Assembly: GCA_034411635.1 (NCBI GenBank)
Contig: DAOUML010000134.1
Span: 14,649-78,648, forward strand
Direction of reading: 5' to 3'
Source: Anaerolineales bacterium
GTDB lineage: Bacteria; Chloroflexota; Anaerolineae; Anaerolineales; Villigracilaceae
Length of the DNA: 64,000 bases
The notes beneath the pieces were generated by a model, which saw nothing but the letters and a program-made list of their open reading frames with translations, ran no database searches and was not told the DNA's origin. A program made the translations under genes and the position numbers. This document shows, one piece after another, positions 3,872 to 30,320 of the stretch. Each line of letters begins with the position of its first letter. The stretch's first letter is position 1.

Positions 3872-3880
3872 TGGTAAAAT
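3872..3880 (+). promoter_or_regulatory. Candidate extended -10 promoter element (TGgTAAAAT) for the MinD-like gene
   Basis: TGGTAAAAT sits in an AT-rich divergent intergenic region, about 60 nt upstream of the ATG at 3942. That ATG has a GAGGAGAGG Shine-Dalgarno sequence. Confidence 0.3.
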
Positions 3881-3941
3881 TGGCTATTCCATACTGTATT
3901 CATTTTTGGATTCGTAAGAATACGCATCGAGGAGAGGCTTC

Positions 3942-4697: not shown

Positions 4698-4720
4698 GAT
4701 TGATTTGATCTGATGGTTTT

Positions 4721-4760
4721 AAGCCACCCGTTCCATAGTTTGTAGCGGGAGGCTTTTTAT
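4721..4760 (+). terminator. Rho-independent terminator-like hairpin after the MinD-like gene
   Basis: aagccacccg pairs with cgggaggctt (10-bp stem, one mismatch), followed by tttttatattttt. Confidence 0.5.
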
Positions 4761-4841
4761 ATTTTTCTGGAAAACGAGCAGTTTCGCCCCTTTAGACAAG
4801 AACTGCTCTCTCTGTTCTACGCATCATTTATTGGAAAATTT

Positions 4842-6191: not shown

Positions 6192-6220
6192 CATGTGAGA
6201 ATAAGTGGGTTAAAGACGCT

Positions 6221-7538: not shown

Positions 7539-7549
7539 GAGATTGACCG

Positions 7550-16027: not shown

Positions 16028-16047
16028 GTTGCTCTCTCCTCAACTTC

Positions 16048-16512
16048 TTATTTTTGGCGTTTAAGCCAGGCGATTAGGGCAATGAGAACGGCCCCTGTAA
16101 TGATAGCGAGCGGTAACCAGTCAGAATTTTCCTGAGCGCTGCCCGTAAGGGATGTCTTTATTTCTGGAAAAGGCGTCAGCAACAGGCCGATTAAAACAAG
16201 TAAAGCCAGGCCTCCAGCAACTGCAAGATTTGGAATTTTGCGGGCAATTGGCATATTATTTACGGTTAGTCTTTCTTTTCTGGCGGCGATTAATAGATTT
16301 TTGCGTATGCGCATGCGCGTACTTTCATCCGGTTGCGCGCTTTTCACAGCCGTTTTCAGGTCGATAATCGTTTTTTGTAGTCTGGCGAGTTCGTTGTCCT
16401 GAGTTGCCTGGTTCATGTCTAACTCTTTATTATTGTTGTCAAGCGCCTGATCAGCAAATTGGGCGAGTTCTTCATCTAAGCGGGATTCGTTATCTAAATT
16501 GTTGTCTTGCAT
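16048..16512 (-). CDS. Putative membrane-anchored anti-sigma factor (assigned by position)
   Basis: 154 aa, starting 3 nt after the ECF sigma gene. It has an acidic, helical cytoplasmic N-terminus and two TM spans (LAVAGGLALLVLIGLLL and LPLAIITGAVLIALIAWL) separated by a 17-aa loop. There is no zinc-binding anti-sigma (ZAS) motif. Confidence 0.4.
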   Translation of the reverse strand: MQDNNLDNESRLDEELAQFADQALDNNNKELDMNQATQDNELARLQKTIIDLKTAVKSAQPDESTRMRIRKNLLIAARKERLTVNNMPIARKIPNLAVAGGLALLVLIGLLLTPFPEIKTSLTGSAQENSDWLPLAIITGAVLIALIAWLKRQK

Positions 16513-16514
16513 TG

Positions 16515-17078
16515 CTATTCCTCCTCCTGGATTTTTTCAGAAAGCGCTGCAATAGCGCGCCGGAAGAGGGACTTGGTCGCTTCAAGCGATTGCCCATTCT
16601 GACGGGAAATCTCATTAAAGGGCATGTTGTCTACAAATCGCATGAGGAGAATATCTTGATAACTTTGCGGCAGTTTCGACAACCCGCGTTGCAGGCTTTC
16701 GAGATTATCTTGTTTTGCCTGCGTTTCTCTATGATTTTCATGAATCTCGCGGAAGACATATTCATAATCTTGTTGGTCTGTGCTGTCTGGCTGTTTTGAG
16801 CGATGATAATCAGCAATTTTTCGATTGGTGATTGTGCGAATCCAGGTCCTAAACTTGGCCTGACCGCGAAAATTGCCTAAAGATTTCAGGATCGCAATAA
16901 AAATTTCCTGGGTCACATCCTCCACGTCTGGTTCAGGAATTTTGAACCGAACTCTGGCATATACCGAGGGTAGTAATCGTTCGTAGAGCAAATCAAAGGC
17001 TTCTTGGCTTCCCATTTTTGTCAGTTGGGCTAATTCTTCGTCACTGGACGCGCTTAGACTCATATTTTGGTGTCTCAT
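16515..17078 (-). CDS. ECF-type sigma-70 family RNA polymerase sigma factor
   Basis: 187 aa. Region 2 reads DVEDVTQEIFIAILKSLGNFRGQAKFRTWIRTITNRKIADYHR. Region 4 reads LPQSYQDILLMRFVDNMPFNEISRQNGQSLEATKSLFRRAI. Confidence 0.85.
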   Translation of the reverse strand: MRHQNMSLSASSDEELAQLTKMGSQEAFDLLYERLLPSVYARVRFKIPEPDVEDVTQEIFIAILKSLGNFRGQAKFRTWIRTITNRKIADYHRSKQPDSTDQQDYEYVFREIHENHRETQAKQDNLESLQRGLSKLPQSYQDILLMRFVDNMPFNEISRQNGQSLEATKSLFRRAIAALSEKIQEEE

Positions 17079-17120
17079 AGTATTAGTCGTAGTTGGGGGC
17101 CAAAAAGGGTTGCAAATTGG

Positions 17121-17148
17121 ACAGCGTGGGGATTATTTTGCCAAGTTC
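17121..17148 (-). promoter_or_regulatory. Candidate ECF-type autoregulatory promoter (GAACTT-N16-CGCTGT)
   Basis: The minus strand reads GAACTT ggcaaaataatcccca CGCTGT, about 40 nt upstream of the sigma-factor ATG. It resembles the AAC / CGT-type ECF -35/-10 layout, but the match is weak. Confidence 0.25.
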
Positions 17149-17431
17149 GTTGAATAACCGCAAGAAGCAACAAGATTATGTTGCTTTCAGAGCGGAAATG
17201 CGCAAGATGAGATCGCGCGTTTTCGCTCTAAAAAAGCGCAATTTTTCACCAGGGCGGAAATATATACGATGAGAGATTACAAATTCAACATAAAAATTAT
17301 ATCTCCAATTCGGAAATAAAGATATAATTAGTCGAGTTTTTCTGATATGTTTACGCCATTTTAATCTTAAATTAATGTTTTGCGCGACTAAGTTATTGTC
17401 ATTTTGTTTTATTCAAACTGGAGGTAATACT

Positions 17432-18238
17432 ATGTTTCGAAAACTGTTTTCATTGACAGGGATTCTTGTTTTCTCTTTGTTCAGCGCGTTCTTGCTTGTC
17501 GCCTGTCAGCCGCCAACGCCAACGCCACCGGCTGAAGAACCGCCCCAACCGGCTCCGGCCACAAACACCCCGGCCCCTGTCGAGGAGCCCCAGCCGGAAG
17601 ATCCCAACGCCTTGCGTGGTGATATTTTGCTCGATCCTGCCCTGGCAACCGATGAAGATTCGCTCAAGGTTAATTCACTGCTCTATGTTGGGCTTGTGAC
17701 TCTGGATGAGAGCGGAAACGTGCAGCCAGCCATTGCCCAATCCTGGGTAATTTCAGATGACCAACTGACCTACACCTTCACGCTGCAAGAAGATGCCGCG
17801 TTTAGCGACGGTTCCGCGATTACCCCGGATGTTGTTGCCGACAATGTTACCCGCTGGCTTGACCCGGAAAGCCCTCTGCGCGGCACGGGCAATTATGAAA
17901 ACTGGCTGGCCTTTTTTGAGGGATTTTTGGGCGAAAAAGATAGTGATGACCGCCCGATTTCTCCGGTGGATGGCGTGAACAAAATTGATTTCAGCACCCT
18001 CGTCTTGCACCTCAATCGACCAGTTCCCGACCTGTTGGTTTATCTGGCCGACCCGGCTTTTGCCATTCTCAAGACCGAATCTTTGCAAGATGGCAGTTAT
18101 GGCAGCATCAATAGTCGCATTATCGCCAGCGGCCCTTATCAGGTCTCTTCGTGGACAAACGACAAACTGGTTCTTACCCCTAATCCGTTTTTCTGGGGGG
18201 CTGCAGCCCAGGTCGAACTGGAATTTAATCTGCGCTGA
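17432..18238 (+). CDS. Family-5 (peptide/nickel type) solute-binding-protein-like lipoprotein, about half normal length
   Basis: The start MFRKLF has a GGAGG Shine-Dalgarno sequence. The lipobox is LLVAC, followed by a Pro-rich linker. LYVGLVTLDESGNVQPAIAQSWVISDDQLTYTFTLQEDAAFSDGSAITPDVV matches the N-terminal lobe of SBP_bac_5 proteins. The ORF ends at 268 aa, immediately before a strong terminator. Confidence 0.55.
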   Translation: MFRKLFSLTGILVFSLFSAFLLVACQPPTPTPPAEEPPQPAPATNTPAPVEEPQPEDPNALRGDILLDPALATDEDSLKVNSLLYVGLVTLDESGNVQPAIAQSWVISDDQLTYTFTLQEDAAFSDGSAITPDVVADNVTRWLDPESPLRGTGNYENWLAFFEGFLGEKDSDDRPISPVDGVNKIDFSTLVLHLNRPVPDLLVYLADPAFAILKTESLQDGSYGSINSRIIASGPYQVSSWTNDKLVLTPNPFFWGAAAQVELEFNLR

Positions 18239-18251
18239 TTGAAATTCTTAT

Positions 18252-18297
18252 CAGAATCAAAACGGGCTGTCAGAGTAGACAGCCCGTTTTGATTCTG
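18252..18297. terminator. Bidirectional terminator hairpin
   Basis: A perfect 20-bp stem pairs cagaatcaaaacgggctgtc with gacagcccgttttgattctg around a 6-nt loop. It lies between convergent genes. Confidence 0.7.
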
Positions 18298-18307
18298 GAA
18301 GTATCGG

Positions 18308-19537
18308 TTACGGCACCCAAATCGGCTCAATCGCATTTTCACCGGGCTGGGAAATTTGCGCCACGATGTTTCCGGTCAAATCTGCGACATAGACGACGGA
18401 TTCATTGTTCGTATTTCGGCTCTGGAAGGTAATATACAGACCATCTGGCGACCAGGATGGGTACACGCCGGGCAAATCATTTGCCACCAGCGGGCGGGCT
18501 TCGCTGCCATCGGACTTTATCAGCATCAGAATTTCATTGCCGATTTTCCCTTTGGTGTAAACCAGATATTGTCCATCGGGCGACCAGACCGGGTAATCAT
18601 CCTGAGCGTTATTATTGGTCAGGCGGCGCGGGTCGCTGCCATCGGCGCGGGAGATATAAATCTCAGGGTTGCCATCACGCCGGGAAGAGAAGGCAATCGT
18701 TCCCCCGTCTGGTGACCATGAGGGGCTGGTGTTTACCGAATTGTTATCAGTGAGTTGGACAATGTTTTCGTTACCAATTTCAGCGCGGTAGATGTTGGCA
18801 TTGCTGCCTTCACCACGATTGGAGACAAAGAGCAGCGAGCGACCATCTGGGGACCAGGTTGGGCGGCTATCGCCGGCAGGGTGGGTGGTTAGCCGAATTT
18901 CGGTCAGGGTTTGAATATCGACGGCGTAGATTTCAAAGTTGCCATCACGGTATGATTCAAATGTCACCAGGCTACCATCGGTTGACCAACTGGGCCAACC
19001 ATCTTTGGCGGGAGAATTACTTAAGCGTGTAACCACTCTTGTGTTGATGTTGACCATATAGATATCAGAAACACCGTTGTTGACACCGGCATAGGCCACA
19101 TGTTGACCATCTGGTGAGAGTACCGGGGTATCTTTGAGTGTTCCGTCGTTGGTCAGGGCAATTGGTTGGCTGTTTCCGTTGGCATCGGCCAGCATGATTT
19201 CGCTTTTTCCGCCCTGATTTTTGCTGATGTAGATGATTTTTCCGCTTGGGCCGGTTTCTTGCGGGGTAACAATTTCAGGCTCGGCGGTAACGATGATTGC
19301 CGGCTCCTCGCTGACGGCGTTTTCTGGCTCAGGGGTGGTGCTTGGGTTCTGGGTGGAATCGCCTTCAGCCACGATGGTTTCTTGCGCGCCTGCGCCGCCC
19401 AGCAGATCTTCGCCTGTGATCCCCTCATCTGCCAACGCCGTGCCATTTGCGCAACCCGATGCCAGCAGTAAGATGGCAACCAGGGCAAACAGGAAGAAGG
19501 GTAAATTTTTCTTGGGGATGAATGAATTGGTTTTCAT
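18308..19537 (-). CDS. TolB-like PD40 beta-propeller lipoprotein
   Basis: The start is at MKTNSF (ATG 19537, GAGG Shine-Dalgarno). The lipobox is LLASGC. Repeated units of the form SPDGxxxAFxSxRDGNxEIY are present. It is a paralog of the C-terminus of the giant protein. Confidence 0.8.
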   Translation of the reverse strand: MKTNSFIPKKNLPFFLFALVAILLLASGCANGTALADEGITGEDLLGGAGAQETIVAEGDSTQNPSTTPEPENAVSEEPAIIVTAEPEIVTPQETGPSGKIIYISKNQGGKSEIMLADANGNSQPIALTNDGTLKDTPVLSPDGQHVAYAGVNNGVSDIYMVNINTRVVTRLSNSPAKDGWPSWSTDGSLVTFESYRDGNFEIYAVDIQTLTEIRLTTHPAGDSRPTWSPDGRSLLFVSNRGEGSNANIYRAEIGNENIVQLTDNNSVNTSPSWSPDGGTIAFSSRRDGNPEIYISRADGSDPRRLTNNNAQDDYPVWSPDGQYLVYTKGKIGNEILMLIKSDGSEARPLVANDLPGVYPSWSPDGLYITFQSRNTNNESVVYVADLTGNIVAQISQPGENAIEPIWVP

Positions 19538-19691
19538 AATGCCTCGCAATGCTTTTATATTATTCTATACCGTTAGTCGAGCGAGAGATTATGAAAGGGT
19601 TATTCCTAACAGCACTGTAAACCAGGGGGTATTTTAAGGTTCTGTTTGGGCCGTCACCTTTCATTTTTGAAAGGTGACGGCGATTATTGAC

Positions 19692-19740
19692 CTAAAAAAA
19701 AACAGGCTGAAAACCTTTCTGCCGGTTTTTTCAGCCTGTC
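19692..19740 (-). terminator. Rho-independent terminator ending the cNMP / partner-switch operon
   Basis: The minus strand reads gacaggctgaaaaaaccggcagaaaggttttcagcctgt followed by a run of nine T. A second hairpin lies at 19651-19680. Confidence 0.7.
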
Positions 19741-19762
19741 ATGCGAAGGTATTTTTGATCCA

Positions 19763-20479
19763 TCAATCGTCTTCTTCGCGCATGGCGCGTAATTGGGCTT
19801 TCAGGTCTTTGAAATACTCGCTTTGGGTGATTTCGCTGGCTTTTTCGCGGCGTTGTTTTTCATCAATCTGAATGCGCAGTTCGGCGACTTCTTGTTTCAG
19901 TTTTTCTTCGCGTTCGCGCACTTGCCCGGCCATGCGCACGAATTCGGCAGCCAGGGCTGAAAGGGAGGTATCTTCAACATCGCCAGGGGTTTTTATCGCT
20001 TCGTAGTTTCCTTCGCTCAGGCGTTGCACCCACTGCCTGATTTCGCCGATGAAATCGGTGGTGTAGCGGATACGCCCACTCAGGCCGCTCATAACGCTGG
20101 TGGCGACTTCTGGTTGGCTGGCGAGCAAGGCGCGGAAGTTTTCCAGGCTTAGGGCGGCAATCAGGCTGTCGCTTTCAGCGCGGGCGCTGGCCGAGCGCGG
20201 CAAGTGATCAATTAAGGCCATTTCGCCTAAAATATCGCCGGCTTTGAAGATGCGCAGGGCCTGGCCTGCTTCGGGGCGAGCCGGATCGGGCATGTAGATG
20301 GCAATTTGGCCTTCGCGCACCAGAATCATTTCTTCGCCGGGGTCGCCCAGGTTAAAAAGTATTTGGCCGGCGGGCAGGGAGCGGGTTTTGAACCGCCCGG
20401 CCAGGGTTTCGGCTTCGGCGGGGGGCAGGCTTTTGAATATTTGCGTTTTTTGTAAAATATCAGTCAGGTCGCTCATCAT
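19763..20479 (-). CDS. Cyclic-nucleotide-binding domain protein with a HAMP-like segment and conserved C-terminal coiled module
   Basis: 238 aa. The CAP_ED signature is GDILGEMALIDHLPRSASARA. Then come EGNYEAI..LSALAAEFVRMAGQV and REREEKLKQEVAELRIQIDEKQRREKASEITQSEYFKDLKAQLRAMR. It has a 4-nt overlap with the cyclase-STAND gene. Confidence 0.8.
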   Translation of the reverse strand: MMSDLTDILQKTQIFKSLPPAEAETLAGRFKTRSLPAGQILFNLGDPGEEMILVREGQIAIYMPDPARPEAGQALRIFKAGDILGEMALIDHLPRSASARAESDSLIAALSLENFRALLASQPEVATSVMSGLSGRIRYTTDFIGEIRQWVQRLSEGNYEAIKTPGDVEDTSLSALAAEFVRMAGQVREREEKLKQEVAELRIQIDEKQRREKASEITQSEYFKDLKAQLRAMREEDD

Positions 20480-23400
20480 TCTGTCCAGTTAAAGATTGGA
20501 AGTAGCAATTCAATGTAGGCGAGGTCTTCAAAGGGTTCCCAGTGCCAGGCTTCCCAGGGGCCTGATTGACCTTTTTTGATGCGCGCCAGAGCATTTTGGA
20601 CGAGGGCGCGCGGGCCGGTTTGCAGTGCCGGGGCCGACTTTGCGAGTTGGTCGAGCGATTCTTCGAGCAGAGTCAGGCTGGCGTGGGTGTCTGCGTTTGC
20701 AAGCCAGGTCAGTTCGGCGTGGCGGTAGGCGCACAGGGCCAGGCCGGGGGCGGTTGGGGCGTTTTTCCAGATGGTTTTGGCTTGTTGGTATTGTTCGTTT
20801 GCCGATTGGAAGTTTCCGGTTTGCAGATGGCTGTCTCCCAGGCGGATGAGGGCCAGGGAGACGCAATCGGTGAGGCTGAGGACCTGGTACAAGGGGATGG
20901 CCGCCGTCCACTGCGCCGACAGGTCATCGAGCAGGGCGCGGGCGCGGACCTGTGAGTCGTTTACCGTGTTGGGCAGCGATGCGCGGGCTGTGGCAGCCAG
21001 GTCGGCGGGGTTTTCTCCGGCGCGCCAGGCGAGCCAGGCTTGCAGGGTGCGGCATTGCCAGGCGTTTGCGTTTTGGGCATGTTTTTCGAGGAAGGTGGTT
21101 AGTTGTTGGCTGGCTTTGGCGGTTTTGCCCTGCGAGGGCCAGGCCAGGGCGAGGGTTGCGGTGAGCCGGGCGGCGAGGTTGGGGGGCAGGGTTTCTAGCG
21201 GGGCGACGGAAAGGGCCGCTTCGCAGGCTGCTGCGGCGGCGGGTAAATCGCCGGTTTGCAGCGCCAGGGTTGCCAGGCCGGTATGGGCCAGGGCTTTTTG
21301 TAAGCCGATTTGCGGGTTGAGGTCGGCCTGGGGGGGAATTCGTTCGAGAATCGCGAGTGAGCGGCTGAGGAGCGGTTCGCGTCCACCTTGTTCGGGTGGA
21401 ATTAGCCCGGCGGCAGTGTTCAGTTGTTGCGCGGCCTCAAGCCATTGTTCCGACATTTCATAATGATGGGCCAGCCTTTCGGCGGTGCTGCGCTGGGGTT
21501 TTATGTCGCTTGAAGCATCGAGGAAGGCGCCGATTTTATCGCGCAGTTGACGCCGGGCCGAGCGGTTTTTGATGTGTTCGGCCATGAGGGCGTGCAGTTC
21601 GCGGCGGCGTTTGAAGGGCAGGCTGGCGTAGAGGATATCGCGGAAGATGGTTTGTTCGAAGGTGTAGCGTGGGTCTATGCCGGCTTCGTTGAGTTCTATC
21701 AGTCGCGATTGTGACAGGCTGCGCAGGTAGCCGGTGAGGGAGATGGGGTCGAGCGCGTCTTGCAGCAGGGATTCTACGTCGCTGCGCCGAAATTCGACGC
21801 CGACCACCGAGGCCAGGCGGGCGATTTCGCGCTGGGCTTCGGGCAGGCTTTCGAGGCTGCTTAGCACCAGTTTTTGGAGGATGTCGGAGGCTTGCAGGAT
21901 GTTTTTGAGGCTGGTTTGGTCGATGCCCTGGGTGCGTTTAATCCAGCGGCTGATTTCTTCGACGAAGAGCGGGCTGCCGTTGCTTTGTTCGTGGATGATG
22001 TCGGTGAGGCCTTCGGTGAGGATGGCGGCGGCCATGGCGCTGGTTTCTGCGCGGCTGAAGGGGGCCAGTTCGATGGTGGGGATGTCTTGGGGCAGGCCTT
22101 CGCGTGGACGCCCGGCCAGCATGAAGATGACGGGCTGGTTGGCGAGTGATTGGCTGAGGGCGAGCAGGGTTTGGCGCGAGGTTTCGTCCATCCAGTGAAC
22201 GTCTTCAAAGAAAATCAGCAGGGGAGCCGATTTTGAGAGCATTTTCAGCGCGGTTGCCAGGGCAGATTGCTGGCGGGCGCTCTGGCGGTTGGGCAGGGGG
22301 GTGGTTTCGCTGGCGGCGCTGGCTTTGAAATCGTCCAGTTGTTCGAGAATATCGAGGTTGGTGGATTGGCGGCTGGCGCGGCCTCGTTTGATTATTCTGA
22401 GCAGATCGTCGCCGCCCGTCAGGGTTTTATCTCGTTTTTCGAGTTGGGCCTGGCGCAGGTCGAGCAGGTCGGTTAGGAGGGCGTGGTCTTCTGGGGGCAG
22501 GTTGAGGGCTGTGGTGAGGCGTTCCAGTTTTTCGGCTTGAATGAGCGGGTGGTCGAGTGGGGTGATGCCGGCCAGGGCGCGCGCCAGCCCGATCCAACAG
22601 GCGTTGGGTTGTTCGCTTTGGTAGGAATGGCATTGGTAGGATTGCACTTGCCAGCCGGTGGCGAGGGCCTGGCGGGCGAGGGTATCGGCCAGGTGGCTTT
22701 TGCCAATGCCGGGGGCGCCGGTGAGGTAGAGCAGGCTGCCCTGATTGTGGTGGGCGCGGGCGAAGATTTCGGTGGCTTTGGTTAGTTCGGCGGCGCGTCC
22801 TATCAGGGGCGGGCGGGCATGAATGCGGCTGAGAAGGGTGTCTTCGCGTGGGCCGTCAATCTGAAAGATGGGAATTGGGTTTTTCTTGCCCTTGACGCGC
22901 ACCGGCGGCAGGTTGCGGCTGACGTAATAGGTATTGACGCGCTCCAGAACTCTTTCGCTGACCAGAATTTGCCCCGGTTCGGCGACGCTCATCAGGCGCG
23001 CGGCCAGGTTGACTTCATCACCCATGACGGTGTACTCGCGGCGGGTGGAAGAACCAGCCTGCCCGGCGAAGGTTTCGCCGAGGGTGATGCCGATTCGGTG
23101 CTGGATGAGCGGTTCAGAGAATTCGGCCGGCAGGTGGCGGGTCAGTTTTTGGGTCCAGCGGCGGTTGAGGTCTTGCAGGGCGGTGTTCATTGCCAGGGCG
23201 GCGCTGATGGCGCGTTGGGGGTCGTCTTCGTGGGCGGTGGGCGCGCCGAACAGGGCGAGTAGTTTTGTGCCTTTGCTGTAAGGGTCGATGCGGCTGACGA
23301 TGCCGCCAAAGCGGCTGATGGCTTCGTTCATCTCGCTAAAGTAGGCGCTTAACAGGCCGGTGACGCGTTGCGCGCCTTCTGCCCCCCACATTTTGAGCAA

Positions 23401-24567
23401 AGTTTCTGGCCCAAGGAAGTTGCAAAACATGACCACCGTTGGGCGATATTCGCTGCTGACCTGGCGCTGGGAGGCGTGTGAGATGATGCGGTCGAGCAAT
23501 TCGCTGGCGAGGTAGGGGGCCAGGGCTTGAATTTTGGTGAGGCTGGCGTGGATTTCGGCGCTCAGGTCTTCTATGCTGGCATCCCAGGGGATGGCGATTC
23601 GGGCGCGGCGTTTTTCGGGGCGAATCTCGAAGGTGTCGAGGTCTACTTCGGGGCCGGGAGTCAGGCGGAAGAAGCCGGGTTTGACTTCGAGCAGGCTGTA
23701 TTCGGCGCGCAGGATTTCGGCGGCTTGCTGATTCATGACCAGCAGCCCCGAAGCGGAGTTGCCTTCGGCTTGCATGGTTTGGGCGACGGTTTCGCCAATG
23801 AGGGCGTATTCCATGCGTTTGGGCGCGCCGATGCTGGCGGCCAGGAAGTGGCCCGCCGCCATGCCGAGTTTCATGGAGAGTGAAACCGGCCCCAGTGGGG
23901 TGGCGATGTTTTTGAAATCGCTCATGGCGCGCAACATGCGCAGCCCGGCGCGGGCGGCCCAGCGGGCGTGGTCGCCGTTTTCTTGTTCGGGGAAGTAAAT
24001 GAGGGTGGCGTCGCCGGCGAATTTGAGCAAAATGCCATTCGACCAGGCGATGATGTCGATCATGGCTGTGAAGTAGCGGTTGATGAAGCCGGTTAAGTGC
24101 TCGGCGCCTTCAGGGCCGAGCGCGGCCAGCCGTTCTGAAAGGGCGGTGAATCCGCTGACATCTGAGAAGAGCAGGCAGCCGCGCAACATTACGCCATCGA
24201 CCAGGCCGGGTATGGGGCGGGCCATTTTTTCTTGCGCGAGGTTGGCGGGCAGGTAGGTGGCGATGGTGTAGAGCAGGGAATTGAGCCGCTCGAGGGTGTT
24301 GAGGTAAATGCCGCTGCGCGGCGAATCTTCGCTTAATTTGCGCCACAGGTCGGGGGGCAGGTAGGTTTGCAGTTCGGCGGAAAGGCGTGGTTTGCTTTCG
24401 GCGTGGGTGGGGATTGCGGCGGCGAGAGGGCGGAGGTTTTCAAGGGGGCTGGTTTCGGCGCCGGCCAGGGCGCGCAAAGAGTCAACTTTCTTTTCTTCGA
24501 GAGAATCGAAGAGGGCCGAAAGGTTGGGACGCTGGCGCGGGGTGTTGGGTTGGGGTGCTTCGGGCAT
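20476..24567 (-). CDS. Tandem class III cyclase domains + P-loop STAND/AAA ATPase + TPR-like repeats
   Basis: 1363 aa. CHD1 has LLFSDVSGFTALSERL and KFAGDATLIYF. CHD2 has VVMFCNFLGPETL, LLALFGAPTAHEDD and YTVMGDEVNLAARL. Walker A is LTGAPGIGKSHLA and Walker B is LLIFFEDVHWMDETS. A long Ala/Leu-rich helical-repeat C-terminus follows. Confidence 0.85.
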   Translation of the reverse strand: MPEAPQPNTPRQRPNLSALFDSLEEKKVDSLRALAGAETSPLENLRPLAAAIPTHAESKPRLSAELQTYLPPDLWRKLSEDSPRSGIYLNTLERLNSLLYTIATYLPANLAQEKMARPIPGLVDGVMLRGCLLFSDVSGFTALSERLAALGPEGAEHLTGFINRYFTAMIDIIAWSNGILLKFAGDATLIYFPEQENGDHARWAARAGLRMLRAMSDFKNIATPLGPVSLSMKLGMAAGHFLAASIGAPKRMEYALIGETVAQTMQAEGNSASGLLVMNQQAAEILRAEYSLLEVKPGFFRLTPGPEVDLDTFEIRPEKRRARIAIPWDASIEDLSAEIHASLTKIQALAPYLASELLDRIISHASQRQVSSEYRPTVVMFCNFLGPETLLKMWGAEGAQRVTGLLSAYFSEMNEAISRFGGIVSRIDPYSKGTKLLALFGAPTAHEDDPQRAISAALAMNTALQDLNRRWTQKLTRHLPAEFSEPLIQHRIGITLGETFAGQAGSSTRREYTVMGDEVNLAARLMSVAEPGQILVSERVLERVNTYYVSRNLPPVRVKGKKNPIPIFQIDGPREDTLLSRIHARPPLIGRAAELTKATEIFARAHHNQGSLLYLTGAPGIGKSHLADTLARQALATGWQVQSYQCHSYQSEQPNACWIGLARALAGITPLDHPLIQAEKLERLTTALNLPPEDHALLTDLLDLRQAQLEKRDKTLTGGDDLLRIIKRGRASRQSTNLDILEQLDDFKASAASETTPLPNRQSARQQSALATALKMLSKSAPLLIFFEDVHWMDETSRQTLLALSQSLANQPVIFMLAGRPREGLPQDIPTIELAPFSRAETSAMAAAILTEGLTDIIHEQSNGSPLFVEEISRWIKRTQGIDQTSLKNILQASDILQKLVLSSLESLPEAQREIARLASVVGVEFRRSDVESLLQDALDPISLTGYLRSLSQSRLIELNEAGIDPRYTFEQTIFRDILYASLPFKRRRELHALMAEHIKNRSARRQLRDKIGAFLDASSDIKPQRSTAERLAHHYEMSEQWLEAAQQLNTAAGLIPPEQGGREPLLSRSLAILERIPPQADLNPQIGLQKALAHTGLATLALQTGDLPAAAAACEAALSVAPLETLPPNLAARLTATLALAWPSQGKTAKASQQLTTFLEKHAQNANAWQCRTLQAWLAWRAGENPADLAATARASLPNTVNDSQVRARALLDDLSAQWTAAIPLYQVLSLTDCVSLALIRLGDSHLQTGNFQSANEQYQQAKTIWKNAPTAPGLALCAYRHAELTWLANADTHASLTLLEESLDQLAKSAPALQTGPRALVQNALARIKKGQSGPWEAWHWEPFEDLAYIELLLPIFNWTE

Positions 24568-24570
24568 GGG

Positions 24571-25611
24571 TTAGTTTTCGGCTGAATAAAGCACAACCCG
24601 GTTGCGCCCGTTGCGTTTGGCCTGGTAGAGGGCTTTATCGGCGTGTTGGATGACTTGTTCCAGGTTGTTGGCGTGCTGCGGAAAACTGGCTGCACCGAGC
24701 GAAATGGTCGCCTGCAAGGTTTGGCCTTTGTGTTCGAGTTTGTGTTTTTCAAAGCGCGCGCGAATTTTTTTAGCGATGCGTTCGATGATGTTTAACGATG
24801 CGCCTGGCAGGATGATGACGAACTCCTCGCCGCCATAGCGACAAACGCTATCGGCAGCGCGGACGCTTTCTTTCAAGATGTTTGCGGCGGCTTGCAGCAT
24901 CAGATCGCCGGCGTGGTGCCCGTAGGTGTCGTTGATATTTTTGAAATGGTCGATATCGGCCATGATGATGCCGATGACGCTTTTGCTTTGGATGGCGCGC
25001 AAGGCTTCCACGCGCAGGGTTTCGTCCATTTGACGGCGATTGTACAGGCCGGTTAATGGATCGTAGGCGGCCAGCCGGCTCAGGTCTTCGAGGACGACTT
25101 CCTTCTGGCGTTCGCGGATGGTGCCGCTCAGCCTTTCCTCGTCGGATTCGCGGATGCGTCCACTCAGGATGCTCAGCAGGGTCAGGCTGAGGGCGGGGTT
25201 TTCAGTCAGGAATTGGTGGAAGGTGTCGCGTTCCATTTTCCAGAGGGAAACCGGCTCAAGGGCAATGACGGTTGCCGAGCGTGGGCGGTTTTCGAGCAGG
25301 GCCATTTCGCCGATGGTATCGCCGGTTGAGCGGAAGCCAATGACGGTAGGGGTTTCGATTTCGCCTTTGATGACAATGGCCAATCCGCTGCGCATGACAT
25401 AAAACATGTCTCCCGCTTCGCCCTCATGAATGATGACTTCGCCCTGCTGACATTTGCGTTCGAGCAGGGTTTGCCCGTTTTGTTTTTTATCCATCCAGGC
25501 CAGTAGTTCTTTGAAGGGAGGTTGGTCGGGCGAGTGGCTGGCTTGTTGTTGCAAGGCATAGATCGCGAGAAATTTATCCAGTTCTGGGCGGGGGATGATT
25601 GGATGAGTCAT
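24571..25611 (-). CDS. cNMP-binding domain + GGDEF diguanylate cyclase
   Basis: 346 aa. It has GDTIGEMALLENRPRSATVIA, then DPLTGLYNRR, DIDHFKNINDTYGH, RYGGEEFVIIL and ADKALYQAKRNGRNR. Confidence 0.9.
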   Translation of the reverse strand: MTHPIIPRPELDKFLAIYALQQQASHSPDQPPFKELLAWMDKKQNGQTLLERKCQQGEVIIHEGEAGDMFYVMRSGLAIVIKGEIETPTVIGFRSTGDTIGEMALLENRPRSATVIALEPVSLWKMERDTFHQFLTENPALSLTLLSILSGRIRESDEERLSGTIRERQKEVVLEDLSRLAAYDPLTGLYNRRQMDETLRVEALRAIQSKSVIGIIMADIDHFKNINDTYGHHAGDLMLQAAANILKESVRAADSVCRYGGEEFVIILPGASLNIIERIAKKIRARFEKHKLEHKGQTLQATISLGAASFPQHANNLEQVIQHADKALYQAKRNGRNRVVLYSAEN

Positions 25612-25693
25612 GGGTTGTTTTTACCATAAAAATATCAATCGTTTTCAGGTTTGCTGATGTTTGCCGTAAATTTTTGGCGCGCGTAACAGCCTA

Positions 25694-26941
25694 TTACGCC
25701 TTACGCACGGCCAATAGAGTCACATCGTCAAATTGGGGCGTGTCTTGCTGGAAATCGACCAGCGATTCGAAAATTTTTTGGCAAATCGTCTGGGCTGAGT
25801 CATCGCTGGTGAAGGTTTGCAGCAGTTGGCGCAGTTTTATTTCGCCAAAGTGCTGCTGTTGCGGGTCATTGCAATCGGTTACGCCATCGGAATAGAGTAG
25901 CAACAGGCCGCCAGGCGGGATGACCAGATGATTCTCGGCCAGTATTGGATCGTCTATAATGCCGAGCGGCAGGCCGCCCGCAGATTGGATCAGTTGGGCG
26001 TTTCCATCTGGGAAAACCAGAATGGGGTATTCGTGGCCGGCGCGGACGTAGTGAAAGTCGCCGGTTTGCCGGGTCAGGACCCCATAGATCAGGGTAGCGA
26101 ACAGGCCGCGGGCATTCATGCCGCAGAGCAGGCTGTTGGCGCGTTGCAAAATTTGGGAAGGCGAATCGGTCGGGTTGCTGGATGCGCGCAGCAGGGCGTA
26201 GGTTTGGGCCATGAACAGGGCCGCCGGAACGCCTTTGTCGGTTACATCGCCCAAGAGTAGCACCATGCGGTTTTCATCGAGCGGGAAGATGCCGTAGAAA
26301 TCGCCGCCAACCGCCCGCGCCGGAACCATCAGGGCGCCAAAGTCGTACCCGGGCAGGGTAGGCAGGCTTTCGGGCAAAATGCTGAACTGGATTTCACGCG
26401 CCAGTTGCAGTTCGCGCTCCAGTTTCTCTTTCTCGATGATCTGGGCCTGGGCGGCCTTGAGTTCATCGTAGGCTTTTTGCAGGGCGATATTTTTTTGGCG
26501 CAGGCTGCGAATGGTCTGGTTTTGGCCGCTGGTCATGCGCTCGCTAAGGACGCGGGCCAGTTCATAGGCCAGGGCCGGATGGCGCGCCAGCAGGCTGTTG
26601 ATTTCAGCGTAGGGGACGACCAGTAAACGGGATTTGCTGACAGCCCGGGCGGAAGCGGTGCGGGTGCTATTTTGGTTGAGCAGGCCCATTTCACCGATAA
26701 AGTCTCCGGCGCGGCGCAGTCCAAGTCTCGATTCTTCGGGGCTGCCCGCCGCTTTGACGATTTCGACCTTGCCTTGCAGGATGACGAAGAAATGGTCGCC
26801 AGGCTGACCCTCTTCGATGACCCATTCTCCGACGGGCGCGTTGTGGACGGGCAGATTCGATTGCAGGCGATCCAGTTCTTCTGCGGGCAGGGTTTTGAAG
26901 AGTGGAATATCAGCAAGGGAGAGGGCGGCGCGCATTTTCAT
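25694..26941 (-). CDS. cNMP-binding domain + PP2C/SpoIIE-type phosphatase (RsbU/RsbP-like)
   Basis: 415 aa. It has GDFIGEMGLLNQNSTRTASARA, a coiled linker, then ARAVGGDFYG, LGDVTDKGVPAALFM, LYSDGVTD and DDVTLLAVR. Confidence 0.9.
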   Translation of the reverse strand: MKMRAALSLADIPLFKTLPAEELDRLQSNLPVHNAPVGEWVIEEGQPGDHFFVILQGKVEIVKAAGSPEESRLGLRRAGDFIGEMGLLNQNSTRTASARAVSKSRLLVVPYAEINSLLARHPALAYELARVLSERMTSGQNQTIRSLRQKNIALQKAYDELKAAQAQIIEKEKLERELQLAREIQFSILPESLPTLPGYDFGALMVPARAVGGDFYGIFPLDENRMVLLLGDVTDKGVPAALFMAQTYALLRASSNPTDSPSQILQRANSLLCGMNARGLFATLIYGVLTRQTGDFHYVRAGHEYPILVFPDGNAQLIQSAGGLPLGIIDDPILAENHLVIPPGGLLLLYSDGVTDCNDPQQQHFGEIKLRQLLQTFTSDDSAQTICQKIFESLVDFQQDTPQFDDVTLLAVRKA

Positions 26942-26947
26942 CAGAAA

Positions 26948-27790
26948 TCAGCCCTGTTCAAGCAACCGCAGAATGCGCGGAACCAGTTCGCGGGTGGCCT
27001 GTTCGCCGCGTTCGATGACGTGCGGGACTTTATCCACATCGAACATTGAGATTGCCCCCTCGAATTCGGGCAGGATGGTGAAAATTTCGGCGTGGTGGGC
27101 CAGGTTGTAGAAGGCATAGGTGGCGTTGAGAATGTTGTTCATGTAAATGCTGTTGAGTTGTTCCTGCACGGCGGTCATCGAGCGGAAACGGGTGCGGTAA
27201 CTGAGTGGGAAGCCCATTGCAATGATGACATCGTTCCCATCTTGAATGGCGATATCGATGGGCAGGGGGTTGGAGGCCGCGCCGTCGATCAGCAGGCGGC
27301 CCTCTACTTCCCAGGGTGGGAAGATGATCGGGATGGCCGAACTGGCCCGAACAGCGTCAAAAATTGTGCCATGCGAAAGCACCACTTTGTCGCCGGTTAG
27401 CATGTCGGTGGCGGCAATTTTGAGCGGAGTTTTCAGGCTGTCAAATGTCAAATCGCCGAAAACGGTTTGCAGGGTATTGTTTAGCGCCGAATCGTTTACC
27501 AGGCCGCTGTGTTCGTTGAATTTGAGCGAGCCGTCCTGGCTGGCTTTCAGGTTGGTGATATAGCCTTGCATCAGGTCGCTCGTCCACAGTTGGTACGAGC
27601 GCTCTTCCATCTCCTTCACGTCGGTATGATTGGCAATCAGCGCGCCATACAGGCTGCCGCCGCTGCACCCGACAACACTGTTGACGTGAATGTCGTTTTC
27701 TTGCAGCACTTTCCACAGGCCAATCGCGGCGGCGCACTTGATTCCGCCTGATCCAATCACAATTGTAACGCTTTTGTTTTTTGGAGGCAT
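26948..27790 (-). CDS. Patatin-like phospholipase (copy 2)
   Basis: 280 aa. The Gly-rich loop is IGSGGIKCAA, the nucleophile elbow is GCSGG (GxSxG) and the catalytic Asp motif is IDGAASNPLP. It lies 5 nt after copy 1. Confidence 0.85.
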   Translation of the reverse strand: MPPKNKSVTIVIGSGGIKCAAAIGLWKVLQENDIHVNSVVGCSGGSLYGALIANHTDVKEMEERSYQLWTSDLMQGYITNLKASQDGSLKFNEHSGLVNDSALNNTLQTVFGDLTFDSLKTPLKIAATDMLTGDKVVLSHGTIFDAVRASSAIPIIFPPWEVEGRLLIDGAASNPLPIDIAIQDGNDVIIAMGFPLSYRTRFRSMTAVQEQLNSIYMNNILNATYAFYNLAHHAEIFTILPEFEGAISMFDVDKVPHVIERGEQATRELVPRILRLLEQG

Positions 27791-27795
27791 CTGAT

Positions 27796-28635
27796 TTACC
27801 CGTTGAGCAATTTTTTGATGTAAGGCAGTTGCGCTTCGGCGGCGCGTTCGCCTTCTTCGATAACATAGGGTAGTTTATCGGTGTCGAAAAGTTTGATGCG
27901 GTATTTGAATTCAGGCAAAATGGGGATAATTTCGGCGTGATGCGCCAGGTTGTGAAAAGCGTAGTTGGTTTTTAGCAGGTTGTTGGATGTGACGCTGCTG
28001 ACCTGGAAGTTGTAGCGCATGAGCGATGTAATTTTTTCCTGGTAGGGGCTTTCAAAGCCCATGGCGATAATCAGGTCGGCGCCTTCTTTGATGGCAACGC
28101 CAATGGGCAGCGGGTCGCTCTGGAATCCGTCTACGAGATAACGTCCATTTAATTTGTGCGGGGGGAAAATGTATGGGATGGAAATGCTGGCGCGGATGGA
28201 AGCGGCAAGATCGCCCTCAGACAGGACGACCTGTTCGCCGTTATACAGGTCGGTGGCGGTGATGTAGAGCGGGATTTTCGCGTTGGAGAAGGTAGCGCCC
28301 TGGTAGCCTTCCTGCAATCGACGGTTAATCAGCCGGTCATCAATCAGGCCGAAGGTTTCATCGAACTTGAACAGGCCCGGCAGGGTAAGTTGCAGCAGGG
28401 CGCGCCGGTTTTTCTTGGCTGTGATGTCGCTGGTCCACATGCGCAGGGTGGTTTCGACTGTTTTTTCTGCTGACCAGCCCAGCGCAATGGCGGCGGCATA
28501 CAGCGCCCCCCCCGAACAGCCGACGACCATATTGACAGCGATGTTTTCGCGTTCGAGCACTTTCATCAGCCCGAGAGCGGCGGCGCATTTAACGCTGCCA
28601 GAGCCGATGACCAGGGCGATGCGGTTGGTTGTCAT
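27796..28635 (-). CDS. Patatin-like phospholipase (copy 1)
   Basis: 279 aa with IGSGSVKCAA, GCSGG and VDGFQSDPLP. It is a paralog of copy 2. Confidence 0.85.
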   Translation of the reverse strand: MTTNRIALVIGSGSVKCAAALGLMKVLERENIAVNMVVGCSGGALYAAAIALGWSAEKTVETTLRMWTSDITAKKNRRALLQLTLPGLFKFDETFGLIDDRLINRRLQEGYQGATFSNAKIPLYITATDLYNGEQVVLSEGDLAASIRASISIPYIFPPHKLNGRYLVDGFQSDPLPIGVAIKEGADLIIAMGFESPYQEKITSLMRYNFQVSSVTSNNLLKTNYAFHNLAHHAEIIPILPEFKYRIKLFDTDKLPYVIEEGERAAEAQLPYIKKLLNG

Positions 28636-28649
28636 GATTTGCCCCGGTT

Positions 28650-28985
28650 TTATTCAAAACTGGCAACGGCTTCATCGACATTCTCAAACAATTTGAGAAT
28701 GTTGGTGAAGCCGCTGATTTTCAAAACTTTCATTACATCTGGCTGGACGGCAGCCAGGCGCAGGTCGCCGCCTCTGGCGCGGGCGTCTTTGACGGCATTG
28801 AGCAACAGTCGCAGCCCGGCGCTGCTGGTGAAATCAACGCCGCTCAAATCGACCACCAGCCGAACCTGCCCCGATGAAATCAAACTCCCCAGGTGTTCGG
28901 TGATTGCCGGGGCGGTCAGGGCGTCGATACTCCCTGAAAGTTGCACAACACTGATGCCATTTTTTTGCATATCCTGGATGTTCAC
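28650..28985 (-). CDS. STAS-domain anti-sigma-factor antagonist (RsbV/SpoIIAA-like)
   Basis: 111 aa. VVDLSGVDFTSSAGLRLLL contains the conserved phosphorylatable Ser context (DF.sSaGL). Confidence 0.85.
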   Translation of the reverse strand: MNIQDMQKNGISVVQLSGSIDALTAPAITEHLGSLISSGQVRLVVDLSGVDFTSSAGLRLLLNAVKDARARGGDLRLAAVQPDVMKVLKISGFTNILKLFENVDEAVASFE

Positions 28986-29007
28986 TTTGCGTTCCTCCTT
29001 GCAGATT

Positions 29008-29427
29008 TCAGGCTTGGTAAAACTTGGTAAAGGTAAGGGTATTGCCCTCTTGCGAGGCCTGGTAATCGATGTTGTCCATGGTTTGGTAAATCAGGAAGAG
29101 GCCCATGCCACCCGGCTCGCGGTCTTCTATGGCGGCATCCAGGTCGGGCGCGGGAGCGGAAACAGGCTCGAAGGCATGACCAAAATCGGTTATCTGAACC
29201 AGGATGCGGTCGGGTTCGATCCAAAAGGCGAGGATAATCGAGCCGGGATCCATGTCCTTATATCCGTGTTGGATGATGTTGGTGCAGGCCTCGTCCACGG
29301 CCAATTTCAGGTTGAAAACAATTTCACCGGGGATGTTATGCGGAGCACAGCACTCGGCAATAAAATTGCGAAAAACTGGCAAGGATTCAAGTTCGGCGGC
29401 GCGGGTAATTTGGAAGCGTTGCAACAT
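29008..29427 (-). CDS. RsbW/SpoIIAB-like anti-sigma Ser kinase (HATPase_c)
   Basis: 139 aa. The N-box is DEACTNIIQHG and the G-box is EPGGMGLFLI. Confidence 0.8.
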   Translation of the reverse strand: MLQRFQITRAAELESLPVFRNFIAECCAPHNIPGEIVFNLKLAVDEACTNIIQHGYKDMDPGSIILAFWIEPDRILVQITDFGHAFEPVSAPAPDLDAAIEDREPGGMGLFLIYQTMDNIDYQASQEGNTLTFTKFYQA

Positions 29428-29435
29428 CGCGACTC

Positions 29436-30320
29436 CTAATAGGGGGTGCCGGGGCAGGTGTTGACCCCGGCCTGATAACCGATCCGTTTAATCATCTTCA
29501 GGTTGTCCCACTTTCGGTCGATGGCTTCGAGGATGCCATCGTGAATTGCCCAGGCGCGCCCGCGCACGCTGTTCCACTGGTGGGGCTGGCGGAAGGGGCT
29601 GCTGCCGTCGAGGGCTTTGTGCAATGCGCCGCCAGGCTGGAATTCGCGCTGGATGGTATCCATCAACTGGTGGCCGCGGGCGTAAGCAAAACCACGGCGC
29701 TCGAAAATCCAGGCGGAGGCGTAGGTCATCGGTTCGAGGGTCAGGGCGTGGTGGCCGAGCAGGGTCAGGAAGGTTTCGATGTGGGTGAAGACGATTTGCG
29801 AACAGCGCAGGCCTTCGCGCACCTGTCCGGGGGCCAGGCTGGCTTGCATGGCGCGTTCTTCTTCCACCAGGTTACGGTGAACAGTGCCAAACAGGGTTTC
29901 GCGGCCTTGTTCGTCGAAATCGGTGTTAAATTTTGGGCTGTTCGGGTCGCTGGCGACCAGGAAATTCAGGTCAATTCCCCCATAAGGATTGTCTGCCAAT
30001 TCAAGATAGAAAAATTCGTTTTCGGGATTTTGACCAAACCAGGCCGAGAGTTTGACTTTTTCGCTGCATTCGTCTGCTTGCAGCCTGACTTGAATTTGTT
30101 TTTCAGGGTTTTGCCAGGTGCGCGGGTTGATGTCGAAAGCGGCCAAGACCTGAAGCGGCAGCAGGGTGCGGTACAGGCGCAGTTTCGGGTTTGGGGGTAG
30201 GCTGTTGAGGGCTTTGAGCGCCACAGGCAGGCTGGCATCCCCAACCAGTTGGGTGATGGGGATGTTTGCCAACGGGTCGTGCCGGGGTGGTTCAGGACGA
30301 AGGCGCAGGTGTTTGAACAT
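29436..30320 (-). CDS. Hypothetical protein, first gene of the operon
   Basis: 294 aa with no TM span and no motif I can assign. It lies 8 nt upstream of the RsbW-like gene. Confidence 0.5.
   Translation of the reverse strand: MFKHLRLRPEPPRHDPLANIPITQLVGDASLPVALKALNSLPPNPKLRLYRTLLPLQVLAAFDINPRTWQNPEKQIQVRLQADECSEKVKLSAWFGQNPENEFFYLELADNPYGGIDLNFLVASDPNSPKFNTDFDEQGRETLFGTVHRNLVEEERAMQASLAPGQVREGLRCSQIVFTHIETFLTLLGHHALTLEPMTYASAWIFERRGFAYARGHQLMDTIQREFQPGGALHKALDGSSPFRQPHQWNSVRGRAWAIHDGILEAIDRKWDNLKMIKRIGYQAGVNTCPGTPY

Follow-up and report, generated by a model that had tools for sequence, protein, structure and literature searches.

Gene content and organization of the locus

A 64,000-nucleotide stretch of DNA from an Anaerolineales bacterium of the Villigracilaceae (GenBank assembly GCA_034411635.1, contig DAOUML010000134.1, positions 14,649 to 78,648 of the forward strand; hereafter the window) carries a run of nine minus-strand genes in which a partner switch of the RsbW/STAS/PP2C type lies together with two patatins, a 294-aa protein and a set of proteins predicted to make or bind cyclic nucleoside monophosphates (cNMPs) (Table 1). 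The nine open reading frames (ORFs) were found at exactly the coordinates given by a first-pass annotation made from the sequence alone, and the spacings of 8, 22, 14, 5, 6, 82 and 3 nt, followed by a 4-nt overlap, were reproduced when recomputed from the ORF coordinates. Profile searches with all nine proteins returned Pfam domains for eight, bearing out every domain call of that annotation, and none for the 294-aa protein, while the catalytic motifs that it had cited could all be read directly from the translations.

The predicted terminator at the tail of the run was confirmed, since the hairpin at 19738–19703, followed by nine U, folds with −21.3 kcal/mol (z = −4.17) and none of 200 shuffled sequences folded as well. 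Immediately downstream is a second, perfect hairpin with a 14-bp stem (19650–19681; −25.5 kcal/mol, z = −6.1), which is stronger than the operon terminator and lacks a minus-strand U-run. At the head, the proposed extended −10 element TGATATAAA is indeed present at 30347–30339, inside the 237-nt intergenic region that precedes the first gene, but it shows consensus resemblance only: a sigma-70 scan found no −35/−10 pair or other site at the operon head, and fewer sites than in shuffled sequences. Because an Rfam search of the whole window matched no RNA family, we assign no riboswitch to the 237-nt leader.

Table 1. Positions of the nine genes and associated features in the window
Feature	Position	Strand	Basis
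294-aa protein, divergent GNAT-like fold, proposed switch target	29436..30320	-	homologues and AlphaFold2 model
N-terminal tail of the 294-aa protein, codons 1-30, MF[KR]xLR[VL][KR]..P.., proposed RsbW-docking or regulatory element	30231..30320	-	disorder and conservation
RsbW-type serine kinase / anti-factor, 139 aa	29008..29427	-	HATPase_c_2
STAS antagonist, single-domain, 111 aa, GTG start	28650..28985	-	Pfam STAS
Patatin 1, 279 aa, RssA/PlpD-like acyl hydrolase	27796..28635	-	Pfam Patatin
Patatin 2, 280 aa, paralogue of patatin 1	26948..27790	-	Pfam Patatin
cNMP-binding PP2C (SpoIIE-type) phosphatase, 415 aa, switch input module	25694..26941	-	Pfam
82-nt spacer, boundary between conserved six-gene cassette and lineage-specific cAMP module	25612..25693	-	synteny with close relatives stops here
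cNMP-binding diguanylate cyclase, 346 aa	24571..25611	-	Pfam GGDEF and cNMP_binding
Soluble-adenylyl-cyclase-like enzyme, 1363 aa	20476..24567	-	Pfam and ADCY10 alignment
cNMP-binding coil protein, 238 aa	19763..20479	-	Pfam cNMP_binding
Candidate extended -10 element TGATATAAA	30339..30347	-	read from sequence
Intrinsic terminator, 11-bp outer stem and inner stem, then U9	19694..19738	-	fold energy

Six of the nine genes form a conserved cassette

Eighty-six loci around homologues of the 294-aa protein were retrieved and annotated by phmmer with the window's own domains as queries. They comprise 38 loci in which the homologue bears the N-terminal tail described below and 48 in which it does not; the cassette set consists of 35 distinct Anaerolineae loci, and the nearest relatives are metagenome-assembled genomes (MAGs) of Anaerolineales. 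The nine genes had been described as one operon unit, and it is here that the description failed, as relatives keep the first six genes only and continue with unrelated ones. In the three closest loci, in which the 294-aa protein is 89% (L007), 87% (L087) and 81% (L001) identical, the first six genes occur in unchanged order, and what lies 3′ of them is a convergent 914-aa gene, an amino-acid permease gene or a convergent aminotransferase gene. The conserved module is therefore composed of the 294-aa protein, the RsbW-like kinase, the STAS protein, the two patatins and the PP2C phosphatase.

This six-gene set recurs in the 35 distinct loci with neighbours that differ in every genome examined, and among 135 genes flanking 32 cassettes no Pfam family occurred more than six times. 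The STAS gene was found in 34 of the 35 loci and the PP2C gene in about 25, and patatins in 25 of the 33 informative ones. The expectation that the lipases belong with the switch was thus upheld in that the patatins and the 294-aa protein travel with it, and fell short in that patatins are missing from the remaining 8 of 33 loci. Few mobile or toxin genes were seen in the flanks (an IS1 fragment at 1–201 of L004, a PIN domain and an IS110 transposase at 17274–20458 of L006, and Phage_integrase in 3 of the 135 genes), too few to point to a mobile cassette. In L047 (10001–10889) the 294-aa homologue is split into two overlapping ORFs and therefore reflects a frameshift or an assembly error.

A complete partner switch with exchangeable sensors

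As the first-pass annotation had claimed, a complete RsbW/STAS/PP2C partner switch is present, with domains and motifs intact and a phosphatase predicted to sense cNMP. The kinase matched HATPase_c_2 (1.9e-30) and retains the N-box (DEACTNIIQHG), G1 (DFGHAF) and G2 (GGMGLF) boxes, its nearest solved structures being RsbW (6m36, 1e-12) and SpoIIAB. The STAS protein (Pfam, 5e-24) reached 86.4 bits, above the cutoff of 53.45, with the NCBIfam model ant_ant_sig (TIGR00377, 1e-24) and contains the phosphorylatable Ser in the context DFTSSAGL. The phosphatase combines cNMP_binding (4e-20) with SpoIIE (1.1e-47) and has the metal-binding Asp motifs GGDFY, GDVTDKG, SDGVTD and FDDVT; the phosphate-binding cassette GEM(A/G)L...R(S/T)A is canonical in all three cNMP domains of the locus. 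These are the same three core parts, with motifs intact, as in RsbU/RsbV/RsbW–SigB and SpoIIE/SpoIIAA/SpoIIAB–SigF of Bacillus subtilis. Unlike there, no sigma gene is linked to the switch, the gene of the GNAT-like 294-aa protein occupies the position of the target, and the order of genes is target–kinase–antagonist rather than antagonist–kinase–target.

Across the cassette set the sensor attached to the phosphatase changes. A cNMP domain was found in eight loci from several sub-lineages (the window, L001, L007, L008, L028, L032, L038 and L087), PAS in L019, L024 and L027, REC in L031 and L036, and GAF in L015, and the phosphatase of L029 has no recognisable sensor. Large PP2C-HATPase_c_2 proteins are encoded in L003–L011; that of L006 is a seven-transmembrane (7TM)-PAS-GAF PP2C with a C-terminal HATPase_c_2, and a 7TM-PAS(-GAF) N-terminal region likewise occurs in L003 and L004. 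Since the sensors swap while the downstream genes stay, the cassette looks like a typical signalling module, with varied inputs around a constant downstream set. The cassette of L008 has two phosphatases, one a 7TM-PAS-GAF-type PP2C-HATPase and the other a cNMP-PP2C, and hence two inputs may converge on one switch there; the same locus has four patatin-like ORFs in a row (15583–20342), two of them without GxSxG in the ORF calls.

The 294-aa protein has a predicted GNAT-like fold

The first gene of the cassette belongs to a family of 1438 homologues, all of them named hypothetical, that fall into 231 clusters at 50% identity; the best 120 of the 1438, from Anaerolineales protein clusters, are 70–93% identical to the 294-aa protein. 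It matched no model in Pfam, NCBIfam or PADLOC, and the family profile matched none of the sequences in the PDB. The AlphaFold2 model, with a mean predicted local distance difference test (pLDDT) of 89.3 and a predicted template modelling score (pTM) of 0.82, was searched with Foldseek against PDB and BFVD. The named matches, although weak, were mostly acetyltransferases of the GCN5-related N-acetyltransferase (GNAT) superfamily, GCN5, PaiA, AAC(6′), TacT/GmvT and SpeG among them, with a probability of 0.98 for 1qst, a best PDB E-value of 0.013 and TM-scores of at most 0.46. In the model, the secondary-structure elements succeed one another as in a GNAT core that has an insertion after beta4 and is extended by helices at its C-terminus. 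The most conserved motifs of the family, GLAPGQVRxGL before helix 174–187 and YxxAxxFExxGFxY, stand at the places of GNAT motifs A and B; these are motif-A-like and motif-B-like stretches only, no GNAT profile of Pfam or NCBIfam having matched the protein.

Gene context offers two further indications. In some homologues an additional GNAT domain is fused to the N-terminus (P0148: Acetyltransf_1, 1e-6). Moreover, in 11 loci from Desulfuromonadales/Geobacter-type MAGs (L054, L057, L060, L070, L072, L073, L074, L078, L080, L081 and L082; at about 8.7–10.9 kb in full-flank loci), genes of one conserved family immediately precede the tail-less homologue on the same strand, with a 4-nt overlap in 8 of these loci. 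The scanned representative of this family, from the Geobacter locus L082, belongs to the histone deacetylase (HDAC) family (PF00850, 9e-86), and the pairs resemble Bacillus acuABC, which couples a GNAT with a deacetylase of the HDAC type (PMC8556138). A gene for a TPR protein often follows the homologue in these loci. Based on the confident model, the dominance of GNATs among fold matches, the GNAT fusions and the pairing with an HDAC-family gene as in AcuA/AcuC, we propose with moderate confidence that the 294-aa protein is a divergent GNAT-fold acyl- or acetyltransferase.

An N-terminal tail accompanies the RsbW gene

Residues 1–28 are the sole disordered part of the model of the 294-aa protein (pLDDT below 50), yet their motif, MF[KR]xLR[VL][KR]..P, is conserved in 34 cassette orthologues. 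Presence of this tail and presence of the kinase coincide without exception. Where the homologue aligns from residue 1–6 of the window protein, an RsbW gene lies immediately downstream (38 of 38 loci), whereas none of the 48 loci in which it aligns only from residue 10 or later has an adjacent RsbW gene; the latter come from Ardenticatenaceae, other Anaerolineae, Desulfuromonadales, Deferrimicrobiaceae and Geothermincolales. The gap between the 294-aa gene and the RsbW gene is typically 4–10 nt, and the two remain adjacent despite a PP2C gene of 3–4 kb inserted between RsbW and STAS. In L041 (10917–11459) an RsbW that has lost the N-box Asn and the G2 box, in a locus without STAS, still lies beside an intact 294-aa homologue, and in loci with a PP2C-HATPase_c_2 fusion a stand-alone RsbW is nevertheless kept beside the 294-aa gene. 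The persistence of the pair in these two situations suggests that binding, rather than phosphorylation, ties RsbW to the 294-aa protein.

The first-pass annotation had left the choice of the released target between the patatin pair and the 294-aa protein. Given the persistent adjacency to RsbW, the perfect tail/RsbW dichotomy and the retention of the pair in L041 and the fusion loci, the 294-aa protein, the invariant partner of RsbW, appears from gene context to be the likeliest target of the switch, rather than the patatins, which are not found in every cassette.

A different assignment of roles would make the STAS protein itself the output, in the manner of SypA or SiaC: RsbW and PP2C would do no more than set its phosphorylation, unphosphorylated STAS would itself bind and activate the patatins and/or the 294-aa protein, and RsbW would sequester nothing. 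There is precedent for unphosphorylated STAS acting on a target, SypA being an example (PMC8256260); the STAS gene is the immediate upstream neighbour of the patatin genes wherever a cassette has patatins, even where a large PP2C gene separates RsbW from STAS, and the bifunctional PP2C-HATPase_c_2 fusions resemble regulators of the SypE/HsbR type. However, the constant adjacency of RsbW and the 294-aa gene, the co-occurrence of tail and kinase, and the degenerate RsbW that persists without STAS in L041 would all be left unexplained, and we regard this arrangement as unlikely.

The patatins are RssA/PlpD-like and keep their catalytic motifs

The two patatins are 47% identical to each other. Patatin 1 (Pfam Patatin, 9e-27) has RssA as its best NCBIfam model (1e-22, below the cutoff), and patatin 2 (4e-32) has PlpD (5fqu, 1e-25) as its nearest solved structure. 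The window proteins contain GCSGG and DGF or DGA, and both paralogues, like 15 orthologues, retain the oxyanion motif GSG(S/G)(V/I)KC, GCSGG and DG(F/Y/A). We considered whether one of the two might be a pseudoenzyme and rejected this, as the catalytic dyad is complete in every aligned sequence. Their order is fixed, the gene of the patatin 1 type always preceding that of the patatin 2 type. The likeness to CapV, the patatin of CBASS (cyclic-oligonucleotide-based antiphage signalling system), that had been drawn earlier was not sustained: patatin 2 reached 19.9 bits with the CBASS_lipase model NF041079, for which the cutoff is 200, and patatin 1 gave no match.

A loose precedent for such a neighbourhood is the rssA–rssB locus of Escherichia coli, where an RssA-type patatin gene stands beside a gene for a PP2C-type regulator; rssA is upstream of rssB and co-transcribed with it from a shared promoter, P1 (bioRxiv 10.1101/2023.11.09.566509). 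Both patatins of the window have RssA as their top NCBIfam model, but the score is far below its cutoff (80 versus 272 bits), E. coli RssB is a PP2C-derived proteolytic adaptor for RpoS, and neither RsbW nor STAS is encoded at that locus.

The proposed cAMP module

Downstream of the 82-nt spacer, the 1363-aa protein contains two Guanylate_cyc stretches, an AAA_16 domain (7e-19) and several TPR families of Pfam. Its two cyclase domains are collinear with C1 and C2 of human ADCY10, aligning to ADCY10 residues 40–183 and 285–465 respectively, and complement each other. Domain 1 keeps both metal-binding Asp residues (FSDVSGFT, KFAGD) and is missing the Asn/Arg pair (VAQTMQ), while domain 2 has lost the Asp residues (FCNFLG, KGT) and keeps the Asn/Arg pair (EYTVMGDEVNLAARL) together with the Thr of class IIIb. 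Membership of class IIIb is suggested by this Thr, which lies in EYTVMG; the position of the Lys is ambiguous because of a 4-residue insertion. As judged from these residues, the protein has one complete, asymmetric active site of the C1/C2 type and the architecture of a soluble adenylyl cyclase (sAC). In full-length sAC the C-terminal part is a P-loop NTPase and TPR region, and the protein of the window follows ADCY10 and its relatives from Chloroflexus and cyanobacteria in having tandem class III domains whose catalytic residues complement each other, with a Thr of class IIIb, and after them a P-loop NTPase and TPR. Bacterial relatives of sAC, Chloroflexus ones included, have been described (PMC11006738), and the idea of a STAND-cyclase serving as a Pycsar (pyrimidine cyclase system for antiphage resistance) cyclase or pattern-recognition sensor gives way to this known architecture.

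The other two proteins of the module would read the nucleotide. The diguanylate cyclase (GGDEF, 1e-52; cNMP_binding, 2e-20) has a GGEEF motif with an RxxD I-site (RAAD) five residues upstream, and the coil protein (cNMP_binding, 2e-19) ends in a coiled "output" motif of about 60 aa. A cyclase gene adjoining that of a cNMP-domain diguanylate cyclase is also seen in Xanthomonas, where the class III cyclase and the cNMP-binding GGDEF protein of XC_0250/XC_0249 couple cNMP to cyclic di-GMP (c-di-GMP) (PMC3770947). That pair differs in using cGMP and a single-domain cyclase and in having no partner switch.

Genes for a cyclase-AAA-TPR protein and/or for an orthologue of the cNMP-coil protein occur 5–8 kb downstream of the cassette on the same strand in L013, L016, L026, L027, L028 and L029, which represent lineages only 50–57% identical; no cyclase was found within 10 kb in any of the 48 tail-less loci. 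The proposed flow from cyclase through cNMP to PP2C gains in plausibility from this recurrent linkage in other lineages. Because the phosphatase has a cNMP domain of its own and cyclase and coil genes recur near cassettes, we consider it plausible that cAMP acts on the PP2C, although the flow itself is still read from gene content.

One could also suppose that there is no circuit between the modules at all, the cAMP genes (25611–19763) and the cassette being independent and adjacent by chance. The cAMP genes are not downstream in the three relatives at 89%, 87% and 81%, an internal promoter could lie in the 82-nt spacer, and signalling genes are dense through the first 25 kb of the window. Yet the cassette phosphatase has a canonical cNMP-binding domain and therefore needs a cyclase, the spacer contains no terminator-like site (its fold is not significant, z = 0.38), and cyclase and cNMP-coil genes recur downstream of cassettes in the lineages that are only 50–57% identical. 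An accidental neighbourhood of this kind strikes us as distinctly unlikely.

Neither a linked sigma factor nor a defence context

The first-pass annotation had noted that no sigma factor is encoded here, and this extends to the relatives: none is present among the nine genes, and Sigma70 is not among the 25 commonest flank families listed for the 135 genes around 32 cassettes. A classical anti-sigma system with its sigma encoded elsewhere, in which the 294-aa protein and the patatins would be co-transcribed cargo or members of the regulon, would agree with the kinase resembling true anti-sigma kinases most closely (RsbW 6m36, SpoIIAB) and with the view covering 64 kb of the genome only. The window also has a gene for an extracytoplasmic function (ECF) sigma factor (17078–16515), 2.7 kb downstream of the run. 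The sigma factors targeted by RsbW-type kinases belong to group 3 and not to the ECF class. As a candidate for the missing target the ECF sigma was rejected, being of the wrong class, not conserved at other cassettes and directly followed by a 154-aa gene that, from its position, may encode its own anti-sigma partner. The classical scheme would moreover leave the tail/RsbW dichotomy unexplained, and together with the absence of Sigma70 from the commonest flank families this makes it, in our judgement, quite improbable.

We give almost no credence to an abortive-infection system in which a nucleotide alarm, made by a sensor-cyclase upon infection, would lead the patatins to destroy the membrane by analogy with CBASS and Pycsar: patatin effectors and nucleotide second messengers do follow CBASS logic, the PADLOC models for cyclase and cNMP domains match at the domain level, and the neighbourhood differs per genome with integrase, IS or PIN genes in a few flanks, but PADLOC recognised no system protein beyond shared domains, the patatins are RssA/PlpD-like and far below the CBASS lipase cutoff, no CD-NTase was found in the nine proteins by Pfam or PADLOC, the cyclase is sAC-like, the 70–93% identity of the 294-aa protein among the best 120 clusters is unlike sporadic, fast-evolving defence genes and fits vertical inheritance under strong purifying selection, and the flanks in the window have housekeeping functions (hutH-like lyase, serine dehydratase, relA/spoT). 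The earlier remark that context lends a defence role no support therefore stands. What the locus has in common with CBASS (CapV) and Pycsar are domain types only, namely patatin, the class III cyclase fold and cNMP binding. A Pycsar system pairs PycC with a cNMP-binding TIR or transmembrane (TM) effector, and the domains found here in the place of such an effector are PP2C, GGDEF and coil; the family is, unlike those systems, chromosomal, vertically conserved and slowly evolving.

Surroundings of the locus

The genes around the locus are ordinary chromosomal ones: besides the hutH-like lyase, serine dehydratase and relA/spoT, they include rpoN with an NtrC-type pair and nuo genes. In several of the six relatives with a cyclase gene or coil orthologue downstream, that gene follows a giant Ig/cadherin/PKD surface protein and adjoins a gene for a ParA/MinD-like ATPase; the cNMP-coil orthologues of L016, L027 and L029 adjoin the latter directly. 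The ParA/MinD-like ATPase at 10685–9774 of the window is an orthologue (E-values of 1e-81 to 1e-86) of the ParA-like gene directly after the cNMP-coil gene in those three loci, and it lies beside a 1417-aa PD40/Ig protein (16027–11774), as the giant surface protein does there. This side-by-side arrangement in the window and in L016, L027 and L029 suggests a larger conserved neighbourhood of cNMP-coil protein, ParA-like ATPase and cell-surface protein. The longest ORFs of the ParA-like gene (9774–10685) and the adjacent PrsW-protease gene (10550–11740) overlap by 136 nt; the start codon of the ParA-like gene is probably further downstream than listed.

A second cluster of the cNMP/ParA type occupies 2087–8638. 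A membrane HAMP-cyclase gene (3748–2087, minus strand) is divergent from a plus-strand run that encodes a ParA/MinD-like ATPase (3942–4697), two unknown proteins of 449 and 211 aa, a GNAT (6762–7538) and a 362-aa TM-sensor protein (7550–8638), whose last 60 or so residues are 45% identical to the coil of the cNMP-coil protein. Of the 368 positions of the SBP_bac_5 profile, the 287-aa ORF at 17375–18238 covers the first 147 only; it lies alone on the plus strand among minus-strand genes and is perhaps the pseudogene of a truncated solute-binding protein.

Discussion

We read the locus as two modules joined in this genome, a partner switch conserved in Anaerolineae (30320–25694) and a cAMP set (25611–19763), that would together constitute a switch without a sigma factor, with a GNAT-like target and cAMP as its input; we hold this with confidence that reaches about half way. 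The sAC-like cyclase would form cAMP, its presumed product, which would bind the PP2C and raise or lower its activity. The phosphatase would dephosphorylate phosphorylated STAS, unphosphorylated STAS would capture RsbW, and RsbW would let go of the GNAT-like protein that it otherwise holds via the N-terminal tail. Once freed, this protein might carry out acyl- or acetyl-transfer, working with the two patatins in the turnover of acyl groups or lipids, and in parallel cAMP would drive c-di-GMP synthesis and the coil protein.

Several points weigh against this interpretation. The absence of patatins from 8 of the 33 informative loci means that their role as output is not universal. The lack of the cAMP genes downstream in the three closest relatives implies that the cAMP wiring may run via a cyclase elsewhere and that the juxtaposition seen here may be recent. 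The tail could have another role, for example in localisation. Assignment of the 294-aa protein to the GNATs is weak, being at the level of the fold only, with no sequence-level link to a solved structure. Finally, a sigma factor may be encoded elsewhere in the genome, as our view is of one 64-kb window.

Partner switching is textbook sigma-factor control, and the known outputs of other kinds are few, with targets that are mostly undefined. SiaABCD and HsbR are partner switches with non-sigma outputs. Like Pseudomonas SiaABCD and HsbR/HsbA, and like Vibrio fischeri SypE/SypA and Bordetella BtrU/V/W (reviewed in PMC8256260), the cassette would combine RsbW/STAS/PP2C logic with an output other than a dedicated alternative sigma factor, and the REC-PP2C-HATPase_c_2 proteins of some of its relatives have the HsbR-type architecture. 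The outputs of those switches are a diguanylate cyclase, biofilm polysaccharide or type III secretion; none is known to work with a GNAT-like protein or patatins, and a literature search for partner switching combined with patatin or GNAT found nothing relevant. Control of a GNAT enzyme by cAMP is known from mycobacterial Pat (Rv0998 / MSMEG_5458) (PMC8556138). Compared with Pat, the cNMP domain is here on the phosphatase, two protein–protein steps away from the presumed enzyme, and no GNAT sequence model recognises the 294-aa protein.

Cumulatively, our findings describe a partner switch with a conserved and probably enzyme-like output, accompanied by lipases, and with swappable inputs, and neither a nine-gene invention nor a system of the CBASS or Pycsar kind. 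The cassette gives a well-defined candidate target, a 294-aa enzyme-like protein that has its tail in exactly those loci where an RsbW gene adjoins, and it occurs widely in Anaerolineae, a large group that is mostly uncultured. The cassette also provides context and a plausible fold for a family of more than 1400 unannotated homologues that is linked to HDAC-type deacetylases in Desulfuromonadales. More tentatively, and with rather more doubt than conviction, we suggest that this family is an unrecognised class of GNAT-fold transferases, that a tail acquired by its Anaerolineae members lets an anti-sigma-type kinase hold them inactive, and that the partner switch gates the enzyme directly, along with two dedicated patatins, in place of transcription. 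If this were true, protein or lipid acylation would be under post-translational control by cAMP, light or redox (PAS), phosphorelay (REC) and other inputs, and if the patatins act with the transferase, a second messenger would lead to remodelling of acyl groups or membrane lipids without transcription.

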